Part shown: one piece after another, positions 14,131 through 45,227 of the stretch | How positions within the stretch are numbered: position 1 is the stretch's first letter | Layout: every line of letters starts with the position of its first letter | Assembly (NCBI RefSeq): GCF_006345805.1 | Contig: NC_043002.1 | Coordinates: forward strand, 94,984,001 to 95,048,000 | Reading direction: 5' to 3' | DNA from: Octopus sinensis | Taxonomy: Eukaryota | Length of the DNA stretch: 64,000 bases | Translations under genes and position numbers: made by a program | The notes under the pieces: generated by a model | Told to the model about the DNA's origin: nothing | Database searches by the model: none | What the model saw: only the letters and a program-made list of their open reading frames with translations

Positions 14131-14144
14131 CATATATATATATA

Positions 14145-15155
14145 TCTATATATATAAAACTGTAGTTGTGTGAGTGTCTGTCCCCTTTGATTTAGATTCC
14201 TAACTACTCCCACATTTTGCGGTGCAGTTTAATCAAATTCGGGTATCTTATAGTCGTGATTCATATCGAGCCCGTCTGAGTATTAGCGCGCGTCTACGAT
14301 TTTAAAAATAATTTAACATCATTTTTTATTCCATTTTAATGCACAATTTTTCGTGTGTCGATGGCGGCGGAGTTGGCGTCCATGGTCACACCTGCACCTG
14401 TGTTCTCCCCCTTCTTCCCTCCCTCGTGAAGCTGTGGGAAAGGGAGTGTAAGGAAATCAACGTTGTAAAGCGTTGTCAAGGAGACCAGCGTTCTTTTAGA
14501 ACAACGACTTCATGGCTTGAAGACACCAAAACAGAAATGGCTAAGAAAGCCCGAATTGGCATCTATAAGGGAAGTAACTCTCTAAAAATGCTTATATAGT
14601 TATTTCCCTTACAAACCCGAGCAACGCCGGGCGATACTGCTAGTATAGATATAAAACTGTAGTTGTGTGAGTGTCTGTCCCCTTCGATTTAGATTCCTAA
14701 CTACTCCCACATTTTGCGGTGCAGTTTAATCAAATTCGGGTATCTTAGAGTCGTGATTCATATCGAGCCCATCTGGCTATTAGCGCGCGTCTACGATGAG
14801 TCTACGATTTTAAAAATAATTTAACATTATTTTTTATTCCATTTTAATGCATAATTTTTCGTGTGTCGATGGCGGCGGAGTTGGCGTCCATGCTCACATC
14901 CGCACCTGTGTTGCTTTTCCCCCTTCTTCCCTCCCTCATGAAGCTGTGGGGAAGGGAGTGTAAGGAAATCAACGTCGTAAAGCGTTGTCAAGGAGACCAG
15001 CATTCTTTTAGAACAACGACTTCATGGCTTGAAGACACCAAAACAGAAGTGGCTAAGAAAGCTCGAATTGGCATCTATAAGGGAAGTAACTCTCTAAAAA
15101 TGCTTATATAGTTATTTACCTTACAAACCCGAGCAACGCCGGGCGATACTGCTAG
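14145..15155 (+). mobile_element. Two tandem non-autonomous Helitron-like units (14145-14643 and 14644-15155)
   Basis: 5' TC (tctatatatataaaactgtag). Each unit ends in the hairpin cccgagcaacgccggg, then CTAG|T. Units are about 500 bp and nearly identical. Confidence 0.75.
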
Positions 15156-31091: not shown

Positions 31092-32941
31092 GTTTAAAGG
31101 AAACAAAAGTGTTATATATCTGATGGGTATGTCTATAGTGGTGAAAATGGGAAGTATAGATGGAAAGTTTTGTGTGTTGTAGAGCTGGAAATAAAGTGAG
31201 TAGTTATTGTGGGAGCTTTCTCAAGAGGAGTGCTGCTTATTTAGGTTGAGGAATATTGAGTAGAAACATTTCCACAAATTTGATAAAGACTCTCTTGTCA
31301 ACAGACCAAAAGAACTGATTGTAGTTTGATTGATGGGAGAGCTTGCAGGGCTGATGCATATTTGACCAATGATAATGTAATACTGGTGGAGCTCTGATTA
31401 ATTAACTGACATGAAGTGTTGGTATCCCACAGTTTGTAAATTCAAATTGGGTGTATGTGATGTATTAGGAGCAGAGATGGCACTGGCTTGGTAGCAGCTA
31501 GGTTTAGGGGTGGGAAAGAGATCAAGCATTTTGCAGTGTCTGTGTATATCGAAAAATAACATGAGATGATGATACTAACAGTTAGATGATATTACTGAAT
31601 GGGAAAAGATTCACCATCTGCCCTAGTAGTGTCAGTGTGAGAGGAGTGTGAGAGACAGGAAGAGTTGTGAGCATTGAAGTCACTGAGGACATTTACTTCA
31701 AAGTGAACTAATGCAAGATACATATTCTCAATGCAGGATGAAAGTTAGTTAAACGGTTATTGGTGGTGGTGGTGTATGTGGTGGTGCTTAGAGGAATTCA
31801 GTGTGATAGAGGTGGCAAAGGAATTTAGAGGAATAAGGAAGGCAGAGGTTGAACCAGAATAACTGGAAACCTTTGTTGCTGATATTGAGGTAAATGATGT
31901 GGAGAATGAATTCTTCATTTACACAGATGTCACCTTTCAGTTTCAGTGCAAAGTTAGAATATAGAACCAGGATAACAGAGGTGAGCTTTAAGAGGTAAGG
32001 GGTGAGAGATTTGTATTTTCAAAGGGAACAGGATGTATAACTTCTGTGGTAGCAATAGGCTTCAAATAATAAACATACACATGCTGAAGATACTGTGAAC
32101 CAGTATTGTAGATGGTAGCTGTTGATATTTACAAAAAAATCTTGAATTTGTAGTATGATGTTATTCTTCGCAAAATTTATCAAGAATGAGTCCTGGCTTT
32201 TGGTTTTCATAGAAAGATAAAAAAAAAATATACGTTTTACAACACCGGCATCACAGATATTGGGTTAAAATTTTCAGAAAACTATATGGCTTGGTTTTGC
32301 ACAAAACTAGTTTAAATTAAATTTAAGATTAAAGGCTAATTAGAGAATTATTACACAAGTTTCATTAGATGTTTATTTATTAGCAATCAAGTTTTAAAAT
32401 GCTTATTTAAAAAAAAATATTCATCTAAATAATTATAATATTGTATGCTTTTACATTTAGCTATACAATGGGGAAATAAATATATTTCAGGTCCTCATTT
32501 ACAGAGCTGGTGATGATATTTATGCAGCCTTCAAAGCTTTGATGTCATTATTATAATTATAATATGGTATAAAAAGTAATAATTGATAATTAACAAAGTA
32601 TTACTTCATTAAAAGACAGGGGGAGGGAGAGAGAGATGGAAGGGGAGAGGGAGAAGGAGAGAGAGTGAGGTGGAGAGAGAGAGGTATCACGTATGAGTTG
32701 TAGTTTAGCCTCCAGGTCAGCCCTGATTGAGCAAAAGCTTTCCAACTGTGACCATTCCATACTTTTCTAGGCATTATGTAACATGGAAAATATTGCCAGT
32801 GTGCCTTTCTTTCTAAGAATGTGGGGTATGTTTTAATAGAGATTTAGCTGTTATTTCTACTAGGTTGAATGAAAATGTAGAGGTTCACCATTGACTCGTA
32901 TCTTTATTAATCAACTAGAAGAGGAATGGCAATATTGATGA

Positions 32942-33171
32942 GTGGCGAATTGGCAGACACGTTAGCGCACCGGGCGAAATGCTTAGCAGTATTTCGTCTG
33001 CCATTATGTTGTGAGTTCAAATTCCGCCAAGGTCGACTTTGCCTTTCATCCTTTCGGGGTCAATAAATTAAGTACCAGTTACGCACTGGGGTCGATGTAA
33101 TCGACTTAATCCCTTTGTCTGTCCTTGTTTGTCCACTCTATGTTTAGCCCCTTGTGGCTAGTAAAGAAATA
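32942..33171 (+). mobile_element. Full-length tRNA-derived SINE family D with 11-bp TSD
   Basis: B-box-like gagttcaaattcc; central gcctttcatcctttcggggtcaataaattaagtaccag (Meta-domain-like, from memory). TSD aatattgatga at 32931-32941 and 33172-33182. Decayed copies at about 8200-8430, 10210-10410 and 21490-21690. Confidence 0.88.
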
Positions 33172-33427
33172 AATATTGATGATCCTTTTACAGAGTCTCC
33201 AAGAGAAGTAAATAGAAGTTGCTCTCAAATTGGAGACCCAACCTGAATAAATACAACAGAGTAGACTTTGCTAAAGAACACAAAGGGCAGAGAGTGGTGT
33301 TAAACTGAGCAATGGCTTAAATCTGTTACAGAAAAATAGGAATGTTCCCTCCAATGAGCTTTAACACAAGGTTTGAAATTTTAGGGGAGAAGGCTTGTTG
33401 ATTACATCAATGCCAATTGCTCAACTG

Positions 33428-33733
33428 TGGAGGCACATGACCTAGTGGTTAGAGTAGTGGACTCTCGGTCGAGGGATTGCGGGTTCAAATCTCAGACTGG
33501 GCGATGCGTGTGTTTATGAGCAAAACACCTAAGCTCCACACGGCTCTGGCAGAAGGTAATGGCGAACTTCTGCTGACTCTTTCGCCACAACTTTCTCTCA
33601 CTCTTTCCTCCTGCATCTTGCAGCTCACCTGCGACAGACCGGCGTCCCGCGTCCAGGTGGGGAACCTATATGCCAAGAAATCGGGAAACCGGCCCTTATG
33701 AGCCAGGCATGGCTCGAGAAGGAACAAACAAAA
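33428..33733 (+). mobile_element. SINE (family C-related) with 13-bp TSD, inside a decayed minus-strand family D SINE
   Basis: TSD aattgctcaactg at 33415-33427 and 33734-33746. Confidence 0.85.
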
Positions 33734-33934
33734 AATTGCTCAACTGGTACTTATTTTATCTTTATTGACTCTGAAATGAAGAAAGGCAAAGTCAACTTCA
33801 GCAAAATTTGAAATCAGAACATAAAGATGAACAAAATGCCACTAAGCATTCAGTCCAGTATGCTAACCATTCTGCCAGTTCGCTGCCGTTTTTGCTTACC
33901 TAATTTAAGACCAAAGACTTTCTCTCTTTCTCTT

Positions 33935-34745
33935 TCTCCAGTCATTTGACTGTGGCCATGCTGGAGCACCGCCTTTAGTCGAGCAAATCGACCCCAGGGC
34001 TTATTCTTTGTAAGCCTAGTACTTATTCTATCGGTCTCTTTTGCCAAACCGCAAAGTTACGGGGATGTAAACACACCAGCATCGGTTGTCAAGCGATGTT
34101 GGGGGGACAAACACAGACACACAAACATATACACACAAAAGCATATATATATATACGATGGGCTTCTTTCAGTTTCCATCTACCAAATCCACTCACTAGG
34201 CTTTGGTCAGCCCGAGGCCATAGTAGAAAACACTTGCCCAAGGTGCCATACAGCGGGACTGAACCCGGAACCATGTGGTTCATAAGCAAGCTACTTACCA
34301 CACAGCCACTCCTATGCCTTAGTCACTAAGAAATAATTTATCTTTTATCTTTTGCTTGTTTCAGTCATCAGACTGTGGCCATGCTGGGGCACCACCTTGA
34401 AGAATTTTTAGTCGAATGTATCAACCCAAGTACCTTTTTTTTTTTAAGCCTGGCATGTATTCTGTTAGTCTCTAAGTTATGGGGGATGTAAATGCACCAG
34501 CACCGATTGTCAAGCCATGGTGGAGGGACAAACACAGACACAAATACACACACACATACACACACGTAGTTATATACATATATACATATATACACATACA
34601 ACTGTTTCTGTCCACCAAATCCACTCACAAGGCTTTGGTCAACCCAGGTTTATAGTTGAGAACACTTGCCCAAAGTGCCATGCAGTGGGACTGAACCTGG
34701 AACCACATGGTTGAGAATCAAGCTTCTTACCACACAGCCACACCT
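33935..34745 (-). mobile_element. Two adjacent family A SINEs (33935-34318 and 34345-34745)
   Basis: Each is the reverse complement of the 23603-23997 pattern. Confidence 0.85.
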
Positions 34746-35326
34746 GTACCTGGAATTGCAGAACGTTCTTGGTCTAGATGCCACAAATTAGAATTAATCT
34801 GCAAAGAAGTTGTTCCAAAACAAACATCTTAACCACACAGTTATGCCAGAAGTTTTCATTAGAAATGTGTTAGAATGCAGGCACAAAGCATCTACAGAAC
34901 GATACAGTTGAGTCAGATTAACTACTATAGCTCTGGTTGACTGCTACCAGGTCTTAAGTATACTACGTTAATTCCATTGCATCTGTCTGAGACACTGCTT
35001 GAAAAAATGGAATATTTTAGAAGGTATACATGCAGAAAAAGATAGGGAAACCCATACGGACTCTTACACTATGCTCTCACTTCTTTCTAATGTTAATTCT
35101 TTAAAGTAACAGATGTGCTTTGAGATTTTCTTTCTACATGAGACATTAAATGAAACCAATATGAAGCAATAAAAGAAAGTAGCAATATTATGTAGGAAGA
35201 ATGAGCTCAATAGCCTTTGGTCAACTGGCATTCTTGATGCGAATAAACTTAACTTTATTGCCAGTAGATTAGCCTCAGATCTCTCTCACATATTCACAAA
35301 CACATGCACACACATCACCATCATTA

Positions 35327-35875
35327 TCTATTATATAAAATCCATTCTGTCTGTCTGTCTGTGTGTGTGGCTTCTAGGATCTCAGGCATCCTCCATCCAA
35401 TTGAGCTCAAATTTGATATGTAGATACCGACAGTATCAGAGTGTGTATAAGTCTTGAAAAAATTACAAAAATCGATTCCAGGTGAGAATGCGATCGATAA
35501 AGCCGTTTTTGTCCTACTTTTCTTCCGTCAACCTGTACATAACTGCACCTTCCATTATTTGTTGTTTTTGTACTGCTGAAAGGCACGTTTCTTTCCTGCC
35601 AAGCTTACTGTTTAAACCATGTTTGTGTTCTCCCAGTCAACAGCCTTATCATTACTGGTACTTTAAACTCTTCAGTTGCATATTTGTGTGAATAAAATCG
35701 TTTTTCTTTGGAATAGAAAAGAAGTCTATCTTTATTTCTTCTTTTGCTGGTGTCTCAAATTTAGGTTAAATCAGTGTTTCTCAAAGGGGAGGCCTATGGG
35801 ACAGTTGGACAAGTTTTGAGAAAATTTGGTTTAAATGTTTGATAACTCAGCATTGGACAGGGGGCATTTTGCTCA

Positions 35876-35910
<35 letters not shown>

Positions 35911-36248
35911 ATGGTATATTCTGTTACAAACATAGTAGAGTACAGTATAAAACTCATCCACCTTCAGATTTACCCTGTGCTATCCAGTAGTAGTATTATG
36001 CATTTTGGCATCTGTCGTGTGTGAATAGGTAACTGAAAAAATTGGAGTCAACAAGAAGGGGTACGGTTGAACATTTATTTTTAATCACTACAATTGTTTC
36101 CATGTAATGGAGAACTATGTTGCGCGGAAACAATTGTTGTGATTAGAAATAAATGTCCAACTGTACCTCTTCTTGCTGATTTCAATTTTTTCAATTATAT
36201 ATCTATACTAGCATTAAAGACCCGTCGTTGCCGGGTCATAGTGCTAGT
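35327..36248 (+). mobile_element. Helitron-like non-autonomous element; 3' limit ambiguous
   Basis: 5' tctattatataaaatccattctgtctgtctgtc; hairpin gacccg...cgggtc then CTAG|T at 36244-36248. Confidence 0.5.
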
Positions 36249-36377
36249 GCATGTATATATGTGTATATATATGTGTACATATTACATGTACATCTATATA
36301 TATACATCTACACATAAAATACAAAATACAAAGTTATATCTTGATATCGCTAGTGATAACAATACTCAAAATATATA

Positions 36378-36699
36378 ACAGACTGGAATTGTTATCCCGT
36401 CTCTTGTAATTTCGATCAATTGTATCTTGTCCTCCCTCTTGTATAGAAGTGTGGCTACAATCCAGCCTACCTCTACTTCGGGGAGGGGGGGGGGCATTAA
36501 AAAATTTTTTTCCAGGACGTCCTACGCCTCAGATATAAAGGTAAAAATAAAATATTTCCACTTTGTAAGTTCGAGTCGAGTACTCCCTTGCATGCTCCGT
36601 TGACTCAAACCTTGCTTCTATTGTGGCGAATTTACCGTCTCTGATTAGATACCTTTCATAGTTGCACCAAGACACTTTTCAATGGTGCTTTCCTCCATG
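36378..36699 (-). pseudogene. Element C: decayed L1/Tx1-type ORF1, downstream part (insertion target)
   Basis: Manual minus-strand translation across frameshifts gives MEESTIEKCLGATMKGI / RDGKFATIEARFES / SGNILFLPLYLRRRTS / PEVEVGWIVATLLYKREDKIQL. This is collinear with B ORF1 (IEEKKIEFCL, RYGTVEVRF, ENIVLLPLYREKRTS, PPEADAECLVAAV). Confidence 0.8.
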
Positions 36700-36947
36700 C
36701 TGTTTTATTATTACCCACAAGGAGCGAACATAGATGGGACAATACAATCTGATGATGGGGTCAGACACACAAATGGGTTTTTACAATAAAACGAATTTAA
36801 AAATTTTCATGAAATTACAATAAATGGACAGAAATCGAATGATGTAACAGACCGGAAGACATTACGGGTGGAGTGGGTGCGGGTTTAGCTCGGACCCCAC
36901 GAGCCCCGCCTCCCCACTGATACTTTTGGTTACGCTTGGTCTTACAT

Positions 36948-39900
36948 TTATGTTGTATCATTCACTCGCAACTTTCGTGCTACATCTTTCCATCGTTCTT
37001 CATACACTCTCCTAGTCAGGCATATTCTCTCCAGCCCTATCTTCCTTTTCAGGTGAAAGATGAAATAATTCATCAAACCAGGGCCGGAGATGAACTTGCC
37101 TGACTGTAGACCTTTCATTCTCGTCTTCCATATCACCTCTTTCGCAATTGCTACTACAACGAGAAAACGAAACTTACCTTCATTCATGAGGAAATCCGGT
37201 GGGTCAATTTTTGTAATCGACTCAGTCGACAGCTGTACTCTTCGTGTACCTGACAACAGCTGTTCGGCATAAACCCACACCTCAGACACGTCCGGACAAT
37301 GAACAATAGCGTGCGGGACGGTTTCCCTATCCCGCCCGCATCTTGGACATATCGGACTGTCTTGGCCACCGTGCCTTGCGAGTTTATCCCGAACAGGTAG
37401 AGCTCCTCTGTAGCATTGCCATGCCAGAGACTTCTGGAAGTTGTCCAGTGTCCTCGGCTTGAACGTACGTTGGAACAGACTGGCCAGCTGATTATCGTCG
37501 AGACCTAGGGTTTCCCCCAAGGTATCTTCACATTCCGCCTCTACCAACCCTCTATAGAAGAATGTGGTGGAACCCCCACCGCAGGCGTTGCCCGAGCGAC
37601 GGAATAGCAGGAGAGCCTTGCGACACTCCGTGTACCAAGTACCAAGTTTCGATCTACGATTCAGCCAGGTTTCCCATCCACCGAAACTAGTGAACTTGGG
37701 AAACATCAGTTTTGCTAGCGAGACCACACCCGTTCACCATCCAGGTAGAGCCACAGATGTCTTAACCTCAGCGCATGTCTGCGCATCATCAGCCAAGGCA
37801 TCCCTAGCCCACCCTTTAACGGTTGTTGACAGCAAGTAGAGCGTTTCACAAGTGGTTTCCCGCCCTTCCACAAGAAGTAGAAGAGCTGTCTTTCCAACTT
37901 GATCAACCACGAATCAGGGCAAGGAACGACGGAAAGGCGGAAGGTGATAACCGATGCGATAAACACATTGGCCACTTCCGCCCTCCCTTTCAGGGATAGC
38001 CACCGCCAAGACCAGGTCTTGGCTACTGCAGCCACCTTGCTCGTTACCTCGCCCCAATTCTTCTCTATTTGGAGGTCTGGACCGAACCAGACCCCTAGCA
38101 ATTTAATCGGACCCTCCGTCCAACGTCCCACGACGCTGTCAGGAGGCATCGACTTGCCTCTCCAGGTGCCGAGTTGCAAGCCGACTGACTTTTCGCGATT
38201 AACTTTTGCTCCTGTCACCGTCTCGTAAACCTCTATGGCCTTGCCTACTTTACATAGGTGGTCCATTTCGGTTACGATGATGGTGATGTCATCCGCGTAC
38301 GCTGACACTGATTTTCCATTACCTGGCTGTCTCGGGATGCCGCTCAGTTTTCGCAGTAATGGCTCTAGAGCCATCACGTACAAAAGCGGGGAGAGCGGAT
38401 ACCCTTGACGAACCGAGCGTTTGATTTTGAACGGCTTCGACAAGAAGCCATTCACCCGAACTACCGAGTCGATGTTATCATAAATTTGGATAATCCACCT
38501 GAGGAAGCCAAGGCTCAGCCCGAACTGTGCCAGGGCAGATACCAGGTAACGATGGTCGACCCTATCAAAAGCTTTAGATTGGTCTAAATGGACCAGTGCC
38601 CCACCCTTGCCAGAATCACTATTAAACCCCTCTATAGTGTACCGCATTAGATGGAGATTATCCTGAATGGATCTGCCCGGAACGGCACATGTCTGTGCCC
38701 CTCCGATCAGACCATCCGCGACACGCGCCAATCTTTTCGATAACACTTTGGCCAAAATCTTCAACTCTGTGTTTAGCAGAGTGATGGGCCTGAAATTATC
38801 AATGCACTCCCCCTTGCTCGGGTCCTTTCTGACGAGAGTCACTACTCCCCGGCACACAGATCTGGGTATAAGCCCGTTCTGCTGCCAGTTCGCATAGACC
38901 TCCGCCAGTAGGTGCCCGAACAAGTCTGGCATACTCTTATATAACTCATAGGGTAGACCATCCAAACCCGGCACCTTGCCCGCGCTGCAGTCCACCATTG
39001 CCTCAACCACCTCCTCAGGTGTGATTGGCCCTTCACAGCCCTCCGCATCTCGCCCCAATAAGCGCAGCAGCCCGTCGAGTAGGTCCGTAAAGGCCCTCCT
39101 CCTATCCAGTCCGCCGCACTCACCGAAAAGCTGAGCGAAGTGCTCCTGAAAGGCCTCACACATCTCCTCGGGTTCGTTTATCATCTCACCTTGTTGGTTC
39201 GTCAAATATCGAATCGTGGCATCGTTACCATGCTGTGCTTCCACCACTCGGGCCCATCTCACGGCGTTGATTCCTTCACATCCCATATGGCGGATTCTAG
39301 CCCTGACAATGCAGCCCATGTGTTTGGCCTTGAGGTGCTGGTTTAACACCAGTCTCTTGGACGCCACCTGAGCCGCAGAGCCAGTTTTCATGGCTTCCTC
39401 TAATTCCTTAACTAGAGTAGTTTCCCTTCTAGCCTCTCTAGCCACTACTCCTATGCTATATCTAATAGACTCAAACTTGATGGCTTGTTTGAGGGCGTAC
39501 CACCATTTGTTATTAATGATGGTACCAGATAGTGCCCTCTGAATTATATCCCTAATCCGGTCTTTGTACTCCTTAATCGCCAAAAGGGACGTATTAAGTT
39601 TCCAGTAACCGGATCCTCTATTTTTAACCTTATCTATGTCAAGCTTACAAGTGACCATTTTATGATCACTGTAGCTGATCGGGTAAAACTGTGGACACTT
39701 AGCTATTTTACTGTCTACTTTTCTAATTAGTATTCTATCTAAATATGACCTGGAAGATCCGTTGCTGTTTGACCATGTCCACAATGGAGCGTTCGGAAAT
39801 TCCAGCCTATAAGGATCTGCTAGCTCAAAGCGGCTTAGCAGTTCCATGAAGCCACTGTTACCTTTTCTATCTGGACGCGAGCCAACACAATCTACATCCG

Positions 39901-40341
39901 CTTTGCAAATTGTGTTAAAGTCTCCTAGCACAACTAATGAATGCGAAGTACCAAGAAAGTTTTCTAGTTCACAAAAATAATCACTTTGCCCTGTATGGTT
40001 GGGTGCGTAAATTGCAACCAGTCTGATAACTTTACCATTACTGAACGTCAAATCCATGACGACCAGCCTACCTTCTGGATCTGCAAAAATTAACTTTTTC
40101 TCAGAAACCCGGTTTCTTTTTATTAGGACCAACACCCCACTTCCACCGTAGGACTGCCAGGAGAGAAAAAACTCTCGTAGCCGTCAAACAGCGGGAGCAG
40201 ACCTTTTGGCCCCTCTAACTGGGTTTCTGTAGCAACAATAACATCTAAATTACGCGACCTGATATCATGCAGGAAGCGACCTTGCTTCCAGCCTGCTCCC
40301 AGGCCGCGCACATTCAAACAACCAACATAAATGTAATCCAT
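36948..40341 (-). pseudogene. ORF2 of element B: APE endonuclease, reverse transcriptase and C-terminal Cys/His motif; two frameshifts (near 40130 and 37720)
   Basis: ORFs 40123-40341, 37715-40135 and 36948-37727 carry LNVRG, ETQ, GDFN, LDRI, SDH (EN); PGLDG, FRPITLLN, DQSKAFDRV, RQGYPLSP, YADD (RT); CPRC..ETVPH...C. Confidence 0.93.
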
Positions 40342-40349
40342 ACTTACCT

Positions 40350-41723
40350 TTATATCAGTGGTTCGGTTTTCTCTTGTTCTTCTAACTCTTTTTCTGGGCC
40401 TCGTGGGGGAGTCCGACGTAGGCCCTCGAATATATGTGGAGATGTCACATCCAATCTAAGTGGGCCTACGTCATGGAAGAATTCGGATTTTATCCGCCCG
40501 TAATCCTTCCGGCCTATTCTGTAGATTACAAAGTCATTTTTCTTTTCCACTTTCTCCACTTTGGCCATAGCAGCCAACACGTTTCCTAGTCTGCTATTTG
40601 CTGCCTTTATGGCCATATATGAGTCCATTGTCTCTCTTTTCTTTTTTAAAATTATTCTGGGAGGGGTGGTTTCCGTTTTTCTTTTTTTTTTTTTCGGTAA
40701 TTTTTTTCCACCCCTCCTCATTTATCTTTTCCTCGCTCTTATTCTCCTCCGCCGCTGGTTCTGCTGTCACCGTCACCTCCACACCTTCGGTCTTCCCTTC
40801 TGGGCCGTCCGACGCTGCTTCTGGTGACACATTTTCTTCTTTTTCTCTTGGCTTCGGTGCTTCCTGCGGTTGGGGTTGGCATTCCGCCCTTACATGACCC
40901 TTCTTGCCGCAACCGAAGCACCTCGGCTTCCTGCCCTCCATGAAAACTGTTATTTTTTCATCTTCGCTGATTTTTACCGTTTCTGGAATTTCTTCCAGTG
41001 TTTGTACCTCCGCCTGAATGGCTATCACTATTTTTTGTCCTTTCCAGAACTCCTCTTCTTCCACTGTGGCCTGGAGGATGTTTATTTTTTCCTCCAGGCC
41101 TACCATCACTGCTGCCACCAGACATTCTGCATCTGCTTCTGGCGGTATGTTGTTCATTGTGATTTTTGACGTCCGCTTTTCTCTATATAATGGTAATAAA
41201 ACAATGTTTTCTGCTTTGATCGTCTCCATCAATAGTTTTTTCGCTATCTCTTCAGTGGTAAAACGCACCTCCACTGTGCCGTATCTTTTTCCTCTGTTTA
41301 TATAGGTTATTTTGTCCATTATCGGTTTCAGACAAAACTCTATTTTTTTTTCCTCGATTTTCTGTATCATTCTTGTTGCTGTGTTGTAAGTTTTATATAT
41401 AATTCTTTTCTTCTCTATATCGTTTGTTTCTGTATGTTTGTGACCACAGTCACCTCTGTGCCCTCTTTCTTTACACTGTCTGCAAATTTTTCCAGATTTT
41501 CAACATTTATTGTTTTAATCTTTTTCCCAGCTACTTCAGCAAATTTTTTCGCTGGAGTTGATGCTGGTACTGGTTTTTCTATTTTCTTGGGCGACGCCAC
41601 CTCTTTTTTCTTCGGCGACAACGCCTCTTTTTTTCTTGGTGACAACGCCTCTTTTTTTCCTGGCGACAACGCCGGGTATTCGTCCTCGCTCGTCACGGGC
41701 GAATAAGAGATGGAGGACTCCAT
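40350..41723 (-). pseudogene. ORF1 of element B: zinc-knuckle RNA-binding protein; frameshifts near 41425 and at the T-run near 40690
   Basis: Starts MESSISYSP at 41723, continues in 40594-41370 with CFGCGKKGHVRAEC (CX2CX4HX4C), ends in the 40350-40721 frame 8 nt before the ORF2 ATG. Confidence 0.88.
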
Positions 41724-41948
41724 CTTGAACAAATGGCTATAACAAGCCTTTGGAAATTCCAAATTAATTGTAGTTTTCCCCCACAGAGGGGGGAACACCA
41801 ACGTGAAGTCCTCGCGTGAAGGCTGACTTTGACAGTTAGACAGTAATGTACACAACGGTTGACAAACAATACAGAAAAACAGAGATAATACGACGAGAGC
41901 AAAATATACAAACTTACTAATAAACGCAAAAATAGCTTTCCTCCATGT

Positions 41949-43716
41949 AATTTTATTACTACCCACAAGGGGCGAACATAGATGGGACAGTACAGTCGGG
42001 GAACCCAAAATAAGAAAGCGAATGACAAGAAAAGGAAAAAATAAAAGTAAAAAATGACATATGAAAGAACATTTACAATGAGATGCAAATGCCCACTCGA
42101 TCCCCGGAATCGAGAGGTTACACCCTCGTCACATATATTTCACAAAATTTTCCTTTTTTTTTCTTCTTTCTTCTCTCTCCTCTCACAATTCTACACGTAT
42201 AGCTTTCAACTCTCTAAAGTCAATCACTGAGCCCTCAGGCAGCCGCTCTCCCACTCGAACACTCGTGTAAAATATTACACCCTCTCCGGCAGCTCTGAGG
42301 AACTCAGCGACTCTTTCTTCGGGGATCAGAGCAGTCTCCCGCCACCGATCGGTCATCCTGCTGACCCACACATGTCCCTCCGCACTACATGTCAAGTCCT
42401 TCATTTCGGGGCAGAAATGGAAGGTCACTAACTTGCAGAAGCAGCAATCCTGCTTCCGTCCCACGCTCTCCCTCGTCTTTCTTTTCGGGCCCACCTCTTC
42501 CTTGTTCTCCTCCCTTTGCTTCTCTCCCTCTCTCTCCCCGCCCTCCCTTCCCTCTTCTTCCCTCTCTTGTCCCCCTGGTTCCTTGTCCGCTCTCTCCCTC
42601 TCTCGCGCTTCACGCTCCCCTTCCTTTTCCTTCCGTGCGCCGTCCCTTCTTTTCGTTTGATTCCGATCTCTCTCTTGTTTTTTTCCCGTTGGTTCTTCTT
42701 CCCTTTTTCCCTCCTGACTCTGTTTTGGTTCTACTTCTTTCCCCTCTTTTATTTCTTTTTCCTTCATTGACCCATTATTTCCTTTCTCCCGTTGTTCTGC
42801 TTCCCCCTCCATGCTTTCTCTTTCATTTACCGCATTCTTCCCTTCTTCAAGTTCCCGCTCGCACTCCGCTACGAATTCGTATAACGGGCACTCCCCTTTA
42901 ATGTGCCCCCCCGCCCCGCACAGGTAACAGTTTGGTTTTCCTCCCTCTACAATTACACTGAGGGTCCTCTCATCTTCAATTTCCACTCTGTAGGGGAACC
43001 TTTCAATGTCCTCCCCTGTGGCCATCAAACACAGTTCCACCCCACATCCTCTCCAGTCTACCGCGCTGGACTCCTTAAAGGATTCCACCTCCACTTCCTC
43101 TTCCGCCGCTCCTAGAACAGCTGTTGCCAGCCATTCCGTTTTCACTTCTGGGGGCATATTCGGAATTCTAACCCGGACCCCTCCTCTTCCCCTGCATGAG
43201 GGCCACATTATAAATTTTTCGGCTCCCAGCACAGTGGTAGCCAGTGAGGCTGCAACTTCTTCCGCTGCACATCTCACCTCCACCGCACCAAACTTCTTGC
43301 CTCCACTCACGTAGGTTGACTTCCCCATTATGTCTCCCAGACACTTCTCGACCTCGGCCATCTCCACTCCTGCCAGCCTCTTCGTATTTTCGTCCTGGGT
43401 TCCACATGTCACCGTCTTGTTTTCCCTGTCCTCCTCTGCCTTCGCGGGGGGGACCAGCTTCACGCTATCACCCTCCCCTTTGAATAGCTTTTCACATTCC
43501 TTGAGTTCACTCTTCTCAAAGAAAACATCCCTCATGATTATCGACGAATCACTTTTTTTCCCCGTGACCCCCGCGCAAGTCGCCATGACCAGAGGGTCAA
43601 TTCACCCTCTTCGGAAGGTTTCCACACGTGGAGGCAAACGCCTCGCGCGATATTAATCACTTTACACAACAAAATTTCAACGTCTAATCACAGATAACAA
43701 CACGTATAGCTTGGAG
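41949..43716 (-). mobile_element. Element A: ORF1-only non-autonomous LINE derivative (HAL1-like), about 1.77 kb
   Basis: About 130-nt 5'UTR, a single ORF, and about 230-nt 3'UTR ending in the same tail as B. Candidate 6-bp TSD ccatgt (41943-41948) / ccacgt (43717-43722). Confidence 0.82.
42183..43586 (-). CDS. ORF1 protein of element A (467 aa, CCHC zinc knuckle), apparently A-to-G hypermutated
   Basis: Open ORF homologous to B ORF1: TYVSGGKKFGAVEVR vs TYINRGKRYGTVEVR, NMPPE vs NIPPE, EGGKPNCYLCGAGGHIKGEC vs EGRKPRCFGCGKKGHVRAEC. Confidence 0.85.
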   Translation of the reverse strand: MATCAGVTGKKSDSSIIMRDVFFEKSELKECEKLFKGEGDSVKLVPPAKAEEDRENKTVTCGTQDENTKRLAGVEMAEVEKCLGDIMGKSTYVSGGKKFGAVEVRCAAEEVAASLATTVLGAEKFIMWPSCRGRGGVRVRIPNMPPEVKTEWLATAVLGAAEEEVEVESFKESSAVDWRGCGVELCLMATGEDIERFPYRVEIEDERTLSVIVEGGKPNCYLCGAGGHIKGECPLYEFVAECERELEEGKNAVNERESMEGEAEQREKGNNGSMKEKEIKEGKEVEPKQSQEGKREEEPTGKKQERDRNQTKRRDGARKEKEGEREARERERADKEPGGQEREEEGREGGEREGEKQREENKEEVGPKRKTRESVGRKQDCCFCKLVTFHFCPEMKDLTCSAEGHVWVSRMTDRWRETALIPEERVAEFLRAAGEGVIFYTSVRVGERLPEGSVIDFRELKAIRVEL

Positions 43717-43775
43717 CCACGTGGGCAAATCTTCTTTTTTCTCTACATTATAGACAATAGTCTTTTCTTTAATTT
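43717..43775 (-). pseudogene. Element C ORF1, upstream part
   Basis: Minus strand reads IKEKTIVYNVEKK, then (frameshift) RFAHV, which joins EESTIEKCL at 36699. B equivalent: IEKKRIIYKTYNTATRMIQKIEEKKIEFCL. Confidence 0.6.
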
Positions 43776-44039
43776 AATTTTTTATTATCCATCTGGACTA
43801 TTCCATTTCTGCATGCTAATTTTATTTTTAATTTATTCCTATTCATGTGAAACCACTTATTCAAGTTCAAATCATTGATGCAATTTTATACCAATTGCTA
43901 TTTTTACTTTTGTTATGTTACGATTATATTATACTTTAGTTTGATTTTAATTATTACTTACTACATATAATTCAATTGTTATTATTATTTTTATTGTTAA
44001 AGTGAAAGTATCTGACATAAAATAGAGAAACGTTTTTGT

Positions 44040-44405
44040 TTATCTTTTAACACGTAATACTGAAATAGTGGAGAAGATATGATATTGCTATGGGCTCGCT
44101 CTAGGCAAGAAGGTGAACATTTGTTTTGCCCATGAAACTACATGGACCCTAAGTAAGGCATGTGTAAAATTTGAATGGAATTGGTTGTGTAGTTCTCAAG
44201 TTTTTGGGAATCGTAGTGGAGAAGATATGATATTGCTGTGGGCTCGCCCTAGGCAAAAAGTTCAAAATTATTTTTGCCGATGACACTCCCCGGACCCTAA
44301 GTAAGGCATGTGTAAAATTTGAATGAAATTGGTTGTGTAGTTCTCAAGTTTTAGGGAAACACACAGACAGACAGACACACATTCTCAGTTTTATATATAT
44401 AAAGA
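44040..44405 (-). mobile_element. 5' part of a Helitron-like non-autonomous element with an internal 148-bp tandem duplication
   Basis: Minus strand starts TCtttatatatataaaactgagaatgtgtgtctgtctgtc; duplicated units at 44066-44213 and 44214-44358. Confidence 0.6.
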
Positions 44406-45227
44406 TATATATATTTATTATATATATATTTATATATATATTATATATATGTGTGTGTGTGTGTGCGTGTACATATGTATGTGTATATGCATATATTCAT
44501 ATATATATGCACGCATGGAAAAGCTGATGCAAAATGTTGTGTATACATGTGTACATGTATAATTGGATATGCGTTGCATATGTGTGTGTGTGTGTGTGTG
44601 TGTTTGTGTGTACACACATACATATGAGTGAGTAAAAGAAACATCTTGTGAGAAATTTACCAATTGATAGCAAACCAAACAAACAATACGAATTGTCTTT
44701 ATAAATATTTCAAAGAGAACTTATTCAAAATTGATTTTTATTAAACTGAATGCTTTATTTATTAAATTATCTTTCAAATATTTGAAGTTTTCATTCTTTC
44801 GAAACCATATCAGAATGCAAACAAACACAGACTACAAAAAATACTAGTCTTTATGTACATTTCTACATTGTACAAGTAAAATTCTATAATATTCAAAATA
44901 ATAAAGAAAGCTAGTTGTACAATAAGTTGTTTGATATAATTCTCATTTCTAATACCCTTCTACATATTTACCTTAATTTTTTTTCTTCTGTTTTGTTGTT
45001 TTCTGTTTTTTTTTTGTTTTTTTTTTTTGGTTTGGTTCTTTCCTTGTGATTTTGAAATTTTATCTTTATTTAACACATCTTGAAATTATTTTCAAAAATT
45101 TATTTGTCATTAATATTATGTATTGTAGTAATAGACAAAAATATTCTTTACATCTTGCATGAAGATCCACGCAAAAAAAAAAACCCCATGCATGCACATA
45201 CACACATACACACATGATTATAGATGC

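Follow-up and report, generated by a model that had tools for sequence, protein, structure and literature searches.

A nested pair of L1/Tx1-type retroelements in a Helitron-like repeat of Octopus sinensis, one with an apparent ADAR hyper-editing signature

Introduction

In crocodilian genomes, Tx1-Mar long interspersed nuclear elements (LINEs) and the short interspersed nuclear element (SINE) family SINEU-3 sit in the transposon Mariner-N4_AMi, and tandem copies of SINEU-3 sandwich a target site duplication (TSD) (PMC4494074). Here we analyze a comparable nest in a 64,000-nucleotide stretch of the Octopus sinensis genome (contig NC_043002.1, positions 94,984,001 to 95,048,000, hereafter the window), in which two retroelements, A and B, lie in a Helitron-like repeat, H, at the site of C, a decayed fragment of a retroelement open reading frame 1 (ORF1). 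Element A also bears dense A-to-G changes, which suggest that it was copied from an RNA hyper-edited by an adenosine deaminase acting on RNA (ADAR). The octopus and crocodilian nests have in common a Tx1-type LINE and a non-autonomous partner inside an abundant non-autonomous DNA transposon, insertion at two places (preferred ones in the crocodilian case, where partners may also be tail-less), and tandems separated by TSD sequence. The preference of Tx1-Mar has been counted (313 of 347; PMC4494074), whereas that for H is a candidate. They further differ in that the octopus host repeat is Helitron-like, the site falls in a captured ORF1 relic of what appears to be the inserting lineage itself, and A, as partner, encodes ORF1 alone.

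Tx1L of Xenopus, a LINE with an apurinic/apyrimidinic endonuclease (APE), is reportedly nested in the transposon Tx1D with a specificity said to have been shown biochemically; B in H is likewise an APE-type LINE within another transposon, with a putative specificity. For element A, the nearest described counterpart is HAL1, a non-autonomous L1 derivative that encodes ORF1p alone and ends in a LINE tail (PMC5753468). Both are ORF1-only elements with a LINE tail, but A is predicted to encode tandem RRM domains and a CCHC knuckle and comes from an octopus, not a mammal.

Extensive A-to-I editing of RNA is a well-known trait of cephalopods. Across animals, young repeats are the main editing targets (PMC9989829), and the repeat annotation of O. 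vulgaris includes active L1-Tx1 and Helitron families (PMC13282606); its supplement gave no match for 'edit' or 'nested'. ADAR hyperediting fixed in integrated DNA is described for the avian retroviruses RAV and ALV (PMC12925331), and the genome screens covered by our search concern APOBEC G>A changes in long terminal repeat (LTR) elements (PMC4866542, PMC2873906). Element A has in common with these cases the marks of a deaminase, left on a retroelement intermediate and preserved in integrated DNA, and it differs from them in being a non-LTR element of an invertebrate with A>G on the sense strand. Human L1 is reported to be bound by ADARs with no detectable editing (PMC8677026; PMC12925331). 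Our literature search returned no report of a germline hyper-edited non-LTR or LINE copy, and likewise none matching on Tx1 targets, both weak negatives as most subscription papers were outside its coverage. The targeting of transposable elements and TSD-separated stacks are known already for Tx1, as are ORF1-only derivatives from HAL1, and the novelty of the locus is carried mostly by the edited retrocopy A.

Results

Element A carries dense sense-strand A-to-G changes

Other copies of A, B and H were reached via protein searches and two public genome-scale contig sets, X1 and X15, in which summed contig depth does not equal copy number. The run comparison listed 15 of 431 joints, 21 of 3263 loose ends, 12 of 77 fill-in rows and 40 of 1262 difference rows, and the statements on joints and differences below refer to these. 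All six relatives of the A protein are O. vulgaris entries, and for the editing comparison A was set against 15 O. vulgaris family proteins over 377 residues (87-463).

Compared with one family protein (P0001), 67 of the 77 differing residues fit G in the window and A in the family, and a single residue fits the reverse. Residues private to A relative to all 15 proteins number 66 of 377, of which 64 fit window G and family A, none fits the reverse, and the other two are single transversions. The inferred A>G sites, 76 in all or about 24% of scorable adenosines, run from residue 95 to residue 446. The skew is absent in all 18 O. vulgaris members (at most 6 A>G versus 5 G>A, compared with 45 versus 1 for the window copy), and B is not skewed relative to its own relatives (5 versus 9; 31 versus 35). 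Plus-strand C>T likewise accounts for 19 of the 20 listed differences in A and for 1 of 20 in B.

The rate of change in A varies with the 5' neighbor (T 0.41, A 0.33, C 0.24, G 0.10), and at codon position 2 with an unambiguous neighbor none of 77 adenosines preceded by G changed, compared with 34 of 93 preceded by another base (Fisher P 7e-11). A disfavored 5' G is the rule for ADAR across metazoans, with octopus among the species (PMC9989829). The rates by 3' neighbor (C 0.36, G 0.31, T 0.16, A 0.15) fit the ADAR preference for a 3' G only partly. In X1, depths for family alleles are as high as 18,169 and 46,860, and a 545-nt contig of depth 36.9 equals the window at 42328-42872.

Dense sense-strand A>G changes in the derived state, together with avoidance of a 5' G, form what reads as an ADAR signature, and ADAR is very probably the cause of the skew. 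Because the A>G changes lie on the sense strand, the edited molecule would have been the template RNA and not the first-strand cDNA; because A>G creates no stop codon, the ORF of A stayed open. Retrotransposition of A from a hyper-edited RNA is the most likely origin of this copy.

The skew could instead reflect loss of G in the family, by an APOBEC-like process or CpG decay, or an assembly artifact. The comparison crosses species or samples, and the run that confirms the allele, X1, may be the source of the assembly, both of which leave room for such accounts, yet we consider them very improbable. CpG decay was rejected as the cause since only 9 of the 76 inferred sites are CpG, and family-wide G>A was rejected since B ORF1, used as an outgroup at edited sites, sides with the family at 8 and with the window at 3 (neither at 11). 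The avoidance of a 5' G also speaks against a cause other than RNA editing, as do the single-copy depth of the G allele within one run, the tryptophan residues kept in family proteins, and the noise-level APOBEC-type DNA editing reported for 19 invertebrate genomes (PMC4866542). Several points nevertheless weigh against an edited retrocopy: the comparison is cross-species and made at the protein level, with residues 1-86 outside it; the edited allele was not seen in X15 at 42574-42634; no inverted or antisense copy of A lies within the window; and X1 was taken as DNA by guess and is possibly the window's own source. The raw-read runs X20 and X21, with 92 and 24 partial reads, were uninformative.

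As a sign of other edited copies, a genome-wide T>C excess in X1 (0.095 versus 0.077 per base) was too weak after composition correction. A 557-nt X1 contig at single-copy depth (39.9; 42443-42978) has 80 differences from A, yet judged by the depth sums 3 of the 12 sites listed for it (42588, 42624 and 42633, each synonymous) do not have the family allele. This contig could represent another subfamily or a second copy that was edited independently. A second X1 contig (43281-43620, depth 40.8, 64 differences) presents a similar case.

A and B entered almost the same position

The features of the nest are collected in Table 1. A, B and the parts of C are all on the minus strand, such that A and B run in the orientation of C as an earlier note on this DNA had stated. 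The 13-mer catggaggaaagc proposed there as the TSD of B occurs exactly twice in the 64 kb, with its upstream copy at 41935-41947, and the two copies bracket B. Three empty forms of the site were listed among the joints, in which 36699 is joined to 43727 (depths 99 and 114), 36698 to 43726 via CTGTT (198.7, X1), and 36687 to 43726 via TT (195). These empty forms indicate that the 13-mer is target DNA and not part of an element consensus.

Table 1. Features of the nested insertion and related sequences (positions within the window; TSD, target site duplication).
Feature	Position	Strand	Remarks
H, 3' end: hairpin, then CTAG before T	36208..36237	-	orientation as copy at 14144-14645
C, 3' piece inside H	36380..36698	-	tblastn; summed depth about 560k (estimate)
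Second place in H joined to a B-type tail in other copies	36389..36393	-	also common break of H deletion variants (36392-36394)
B, 3' TSD copy, 13 bp	36687..36699	-	
B, full-length L1/Tx1-type LINE, 5235 bp	36700..41934	-	both ORFs frameshifted; no A>G skew
aacag between B tail and 3' TSD	36700..36704	-	possibly target-derived
B ORF2: APE endonuclease, reverse transcriptase (YADD), C-terminal zf-RVT	36948..40341	-	Pfam Exo_endo_phos, RVT_1, zf-RVT
B ORF1: CCHC knuckle, three frames	40350..41723	-	83% identical over 206 aa to O. sinensis P0149
Spacer between A and B: B 5' TSD copy plus one base	41935..41948	-	target sequence
A, putative ORF1-only (HAL1-like) non-autonomous L1/Tx1 element, 1768 bp	41949..43716	-	A-to-G hypermutated
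A, 3' tail	41949..41997	-	common to B and SINE
A ORF1, 467 aa, open	42183..43586	-	tandem RRM fold (predicted), CCHC knuckle, charged linker, C-terminal domain
acgtgg, proposed earlier as 5' TSD copy of A	43717..43722	-	possibly edited RNA leader of A
H, 5' part	43721..44405	-	Helitron-like, non-autonomous; TC start after A at 44405; 5' end like element at 14144
C, 5' piece, IKEKTIVYNV region	43721..43775	-	profile score; relative P0231 has IKEKNVVYKV
H, internal tandem duplication, 148 bp	44066-44358	-	
SINE with related tail	32942..33171	+	11-bp TSD 32931-32941, 33172-33182; outside H

On the sense strand, the CTGTT of the empty variant reads aacag, the five bases that stand at the same place before the 3' TSD of B. 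Since aacag is present in an empty H variant, the nick for B may have been 5 nt farther upstream, where the sequence begins A-rich, and the earlier claim of a site unlike that of L1 is therefore not established. Either the TSD of B was 18 bp and its first five bases were replaced by element A, or aacag was brought by B from a donor in a like site. The 6-bp TSD that had been suggested for A is doubtful, as its single mismatch (acgtgg versus acatgg) is an A>G change in the direction of the editing of A; ordinary mutation at the divergence of about 0.2% in A gives a chance of about 3% for a mismatch over 12 bases, while editing hits about one A in four, and the acgtgg stretch may have come with the edited RNA of A. 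Under both junction readings, the A and B nicks are within 6 nt of each other, which keeps the near-coincidence of the two 3' junctions but widens the proposed distance of about 1 nt to a range of 1-6 nt. For a random second insertion, the chance of falling at most 5 nt from a given first one is about 4e-7 to 2e-4 under rough assumptions. One of the two junction stretches, aacag or the edited acgtgg, appears to have been brought in from a donor situated in a similar site.

Head-to-tail stacking, which had been proposed from this locus, has support from other copies. A tandem consisting of an A-type tail, acatg, 14 letters and an A-like 5' end was found elsewhere at depth 197, and A-family proteins of O. 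vulgaris stand in consecutive accessions on single chromosomes (CAI9715245-49 and 51, CAI9739099-101, and three pairs), the sequences of the longest run differing in 4 of 6. A fixed A+B composite containing the edited A was ruled out by the single-copy depth of the edited allele.

C is an ORF1 relic within the abundant repeat H

Both flanks of the nest derive from ORF1, which bears out the placement of the two insertions in one ORF1 segment. The 3' piece of C, from 36698 down to about 36396, is a relic in several frames with tblastn E values down to 1e-11 versus ORF1 relatives, and the 5' piece has a profile score of 13.3, a value that 1 of 2000 stretches drawn at random from the window and 1 of 2000 shuffled ones attained; in the same test, the tails of A and B were at about -14. 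The continuous ORF1 claimed on removal of A and B therefore holds as far as homology of both flanks is concerned, but the profile test leaves the junction register unfixed, as three registers score 13.3-15.7. As a protein search query, the 49-aa frame of C left neither of two candidates scored.

C was earlier taken to be a third family member, but it is not an independent LINE. It is without everything past the start of the second RRM, and it is embedded in a repeat of very high depth: summed depths in X1 are 697k and 543k for the H flanks (543k at 43812-44040) and about 0.5 million for the C pieces beside the nest, compared with 11-29k for bins across A, 4-20k for B ORF1 and 42-224k for B ORF2. 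In genome contigs, H is some 20-40 times deeper than A, and this depth ratio places C within a much more abundant repeat, as a decayed ORF1 fragment that is its passenger. In other H copies, 36392-36394 is joined directly to 43730-43796, and so both flanks belong to one unit, H, which measures about 1.17 kb minus the nest. Several H variants are without the ORF1 relic, and every one of them breaks at 36392-36394, beside the second tail junction.

Non-autonomous Helitrons with captured fragments have a 5' TC, a 3' hairpin followed by CTAG, and an insertion point between A and T. The ends of H fit these features, and its internal tandem duplication and captured coding fragment are further points in common with such elements. 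For H, in contrast to the known cases, the ends at 44405 and 36208 are joined by inference, although they appear to belong to one element; the stretch compared with the runs lay inside these ends. Judged by this list of features, H is quite probably a non-autonomous Helitron that captured an ORF1 fragment.

Coding capacity of B and A

The features of B are those of the L1/Tx1 group, with an N-terminal APE, a reverse transcriptase (RT) and a C-terminal cysteine-rich domain in ORF2. Its closest match among solved structures is human L1 ORF2p (E 8e-57, versus 2e-24 for R2). Its ORF1, tail and TSD are also as expected of this group, though the CCHC is below cut-off and the RRM fold is indicated in the homologue A only. 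We therefore place B in the L1/Tx1 group, with a putative assignment to the Tx1 clade, as the relatives compared included no named Tx1 reference. The frameshifts of ORF2 lie near 40150 and 37720, and other copies carry indels at 40147 and 37719-20. Among relatives of B ORF2, a fish cluster (P0079, Coilia grayii) occupies three consecutive accessions on one chromosome, as expected of tandem site-preferring elements.

Element A is without ORF2 and has a pyrimidine-rich 3' region before its tail, which gives it a HAL1-like ORF1-only structure. The AlphaFold model of its ORF1 has a pLDDT of about 90 over residues 20-270, and the best Foldseek matches are RRM1-2 of IMP3 (E 1e-5); the zf-CCHC falls under the Pfam cut-off (E 0.031). 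The ORF1s of A and B are 29% identical, and A is thus not a simple deletion product of B. A and B are 91% identical over a common tail of 47 nt, which the SINE at 32942 carries at 80-83% over 40-41 nt. The A family comprises many near-identical ORF1 proteins, and together with the depth of 11-29k across A these may represent a multi-copy family of the same ORF1-only structure. No Rfam match at gathering score was obtained in 32800-44500.

Further observations concern the ends of A and its surroundings in other genomes. An exact 13-mer is common to the 5' leader of A (43700-43712) and the end of its ORF (42193-42205), and the last residues of the protein, AIRVEL versus AIMEYV in the family, fit a short deletion there. 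In five O. vulgaris models on four chromosome-size contigs (P0134, P0138, P0139, P0005 and P0152), an 89-aa repeat ORF of the P0132 type is fused to a downstream A-family ORF, which suggests a recurring neighbor. The idea that this 89-aa MTEQ ORF is the C-terminal domain of a sister ORF1 was rejected as not significant (at least 34 of 500 shuffles reached each score). The 5' half of the SINE matches at least 8 other places in the window at 70-75%, and the LINE-like tail is confined to the copy at 32942.

Target preference

A B-type tail also occurs at a second H site, where 36389 is joined to 36701 at depths of 628 (X1) and 613 (X15); each run supplied a single contig for this joint, and its shorter side spans 22 letters. 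A search for the tail pattern in metagenome contigs gave one match, in unrelated GC-rich coding DNA and taken as chance, and the target pattern gave 0 matches in viral and 0 in prokaryote contigs. An endonuclease preference for H throughout the lineage is an account that we favor by a little. Weighing against it, the second-site tail may be one insertion amplified with H; among the rows listed, there is no second independent A or B tail at the 13-mer; and the consecutive accessions may include isoforms. The tail-sharing SINE, as was said of it before, sits in an unrelated site outside H with its own TSD, and the junctions start A-rich (aacag in the alternative reading of B, aacaa at the second site, aatat at the SINE), as for a loose L1-type site.

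The last two points, along with the possibility that B, lacking internal stops in its long frames, is as young as A, are what a lineage indifferent to H would leave: a loose L1-like preference for A-rich sites, a chance hit of B on an abundant repeat, and arrival of A either after the fresh TSD was nicked again locally or through a template jump during the same event. This is a serious but rather unlikely alternative, as target sequence stands between A and B, which would be unexpected after a plain template jump, a tail occurs at the second H site, and aacag or the edited acgtgg seems to derive from a donor in a like site. More doubtful still is that the endonuclease recognizes the ORF1 coding sequence of related LINEs generally and builds its stacks there, the targeting that the earlier note had suggested. 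The site does lie in a true ORF1 relic, and the second tail junction is likewise at a relic end; however, neither the ORF1 of A nor that of B contains the 13-mer, which leaves general ORF1 targeting unsupported, and the abundance of the repeat in which the relic rides offers a simpler account. Between these, a preference for H keeps its slight lead.

Discussion

In the explanation that we favor, B would have inserted into the ORF1 fragment of H by target-primed reverse transcription, duplicating at least 13 bp and so leaving a second copy of the nick site on its own 5' side. A, with its B-type tail, would have been mobilized in trans by ORF2 of the same lineage and inserted into the upstream site copy, giving the head-to-tail stack. 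ADAR would have hyper-edited the RNA of A (A to I) across a stretch of at least 1.05 kb, with inosine read as G during reverse transcription; the double-stranded RNA for editing may have come from a copy lying antisense or inverted at the donor locus. Taken as a whole, from the nest in H through the order of the insertions to the edited RNA, this explanation is a reasonably good bet, while its parts differ in strength. Both elements carry lesions, several frameshifts in B and a likely short deletion at the ORF end in A; as the long frames of both (822 and 261 codons in B) are free of internal stops, the order B then A is likely and no stronger. Entry of A and B in a single event is a further possibility.

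The backflow of RNA edits into a genome is usually argued, not shown. The locus would offer one clear example, in which about a quarter of the adenosines of a young LINE-family copy were converted under the ADAR neighbor rule, and with controls supplied by unedited paralogues and by the unedited neighbor B. Clusters of sense-strand A>G with avoidance of a 5' G make a simple genome-wide test, which would also read out germline ADAR activity, and repeat dating would mistake such hyper-edited copies for old ones or for distinct subfamilies. The targeting side taken alone is modest, adding one more Tx1-like lineage that targets transposable elements; its candidate target is a Helitron-borne relic of ORF1. 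A broader and speculative idea, which we think will probably prove too strong, is that retrotransposition of ADAR-hyperedited L1/Tx1 RNAs is a regular route from RNA editing to inherited DNA in octopus germlines, giving G-rich, open ORF1 variants in one step, and that a relic of its own ORF1, amplified by Helitrons, is where the lineage homes and stacks, these stacks supplying both landing sites and read-through RNAs for editing.

Other Helitron-like sequence in the window

A Helitron-like element occupies 14144-14720, with the start of a second copy directly after it in tandem, and a further Helitron-like 5' end lies at 35330 on the plus strand. Just past the 3' end of H, a 168-bp imperfect palindrome (81%) spans 36030-36197, and the hairpin at 36208-36249 has CTAG after it on both strands.

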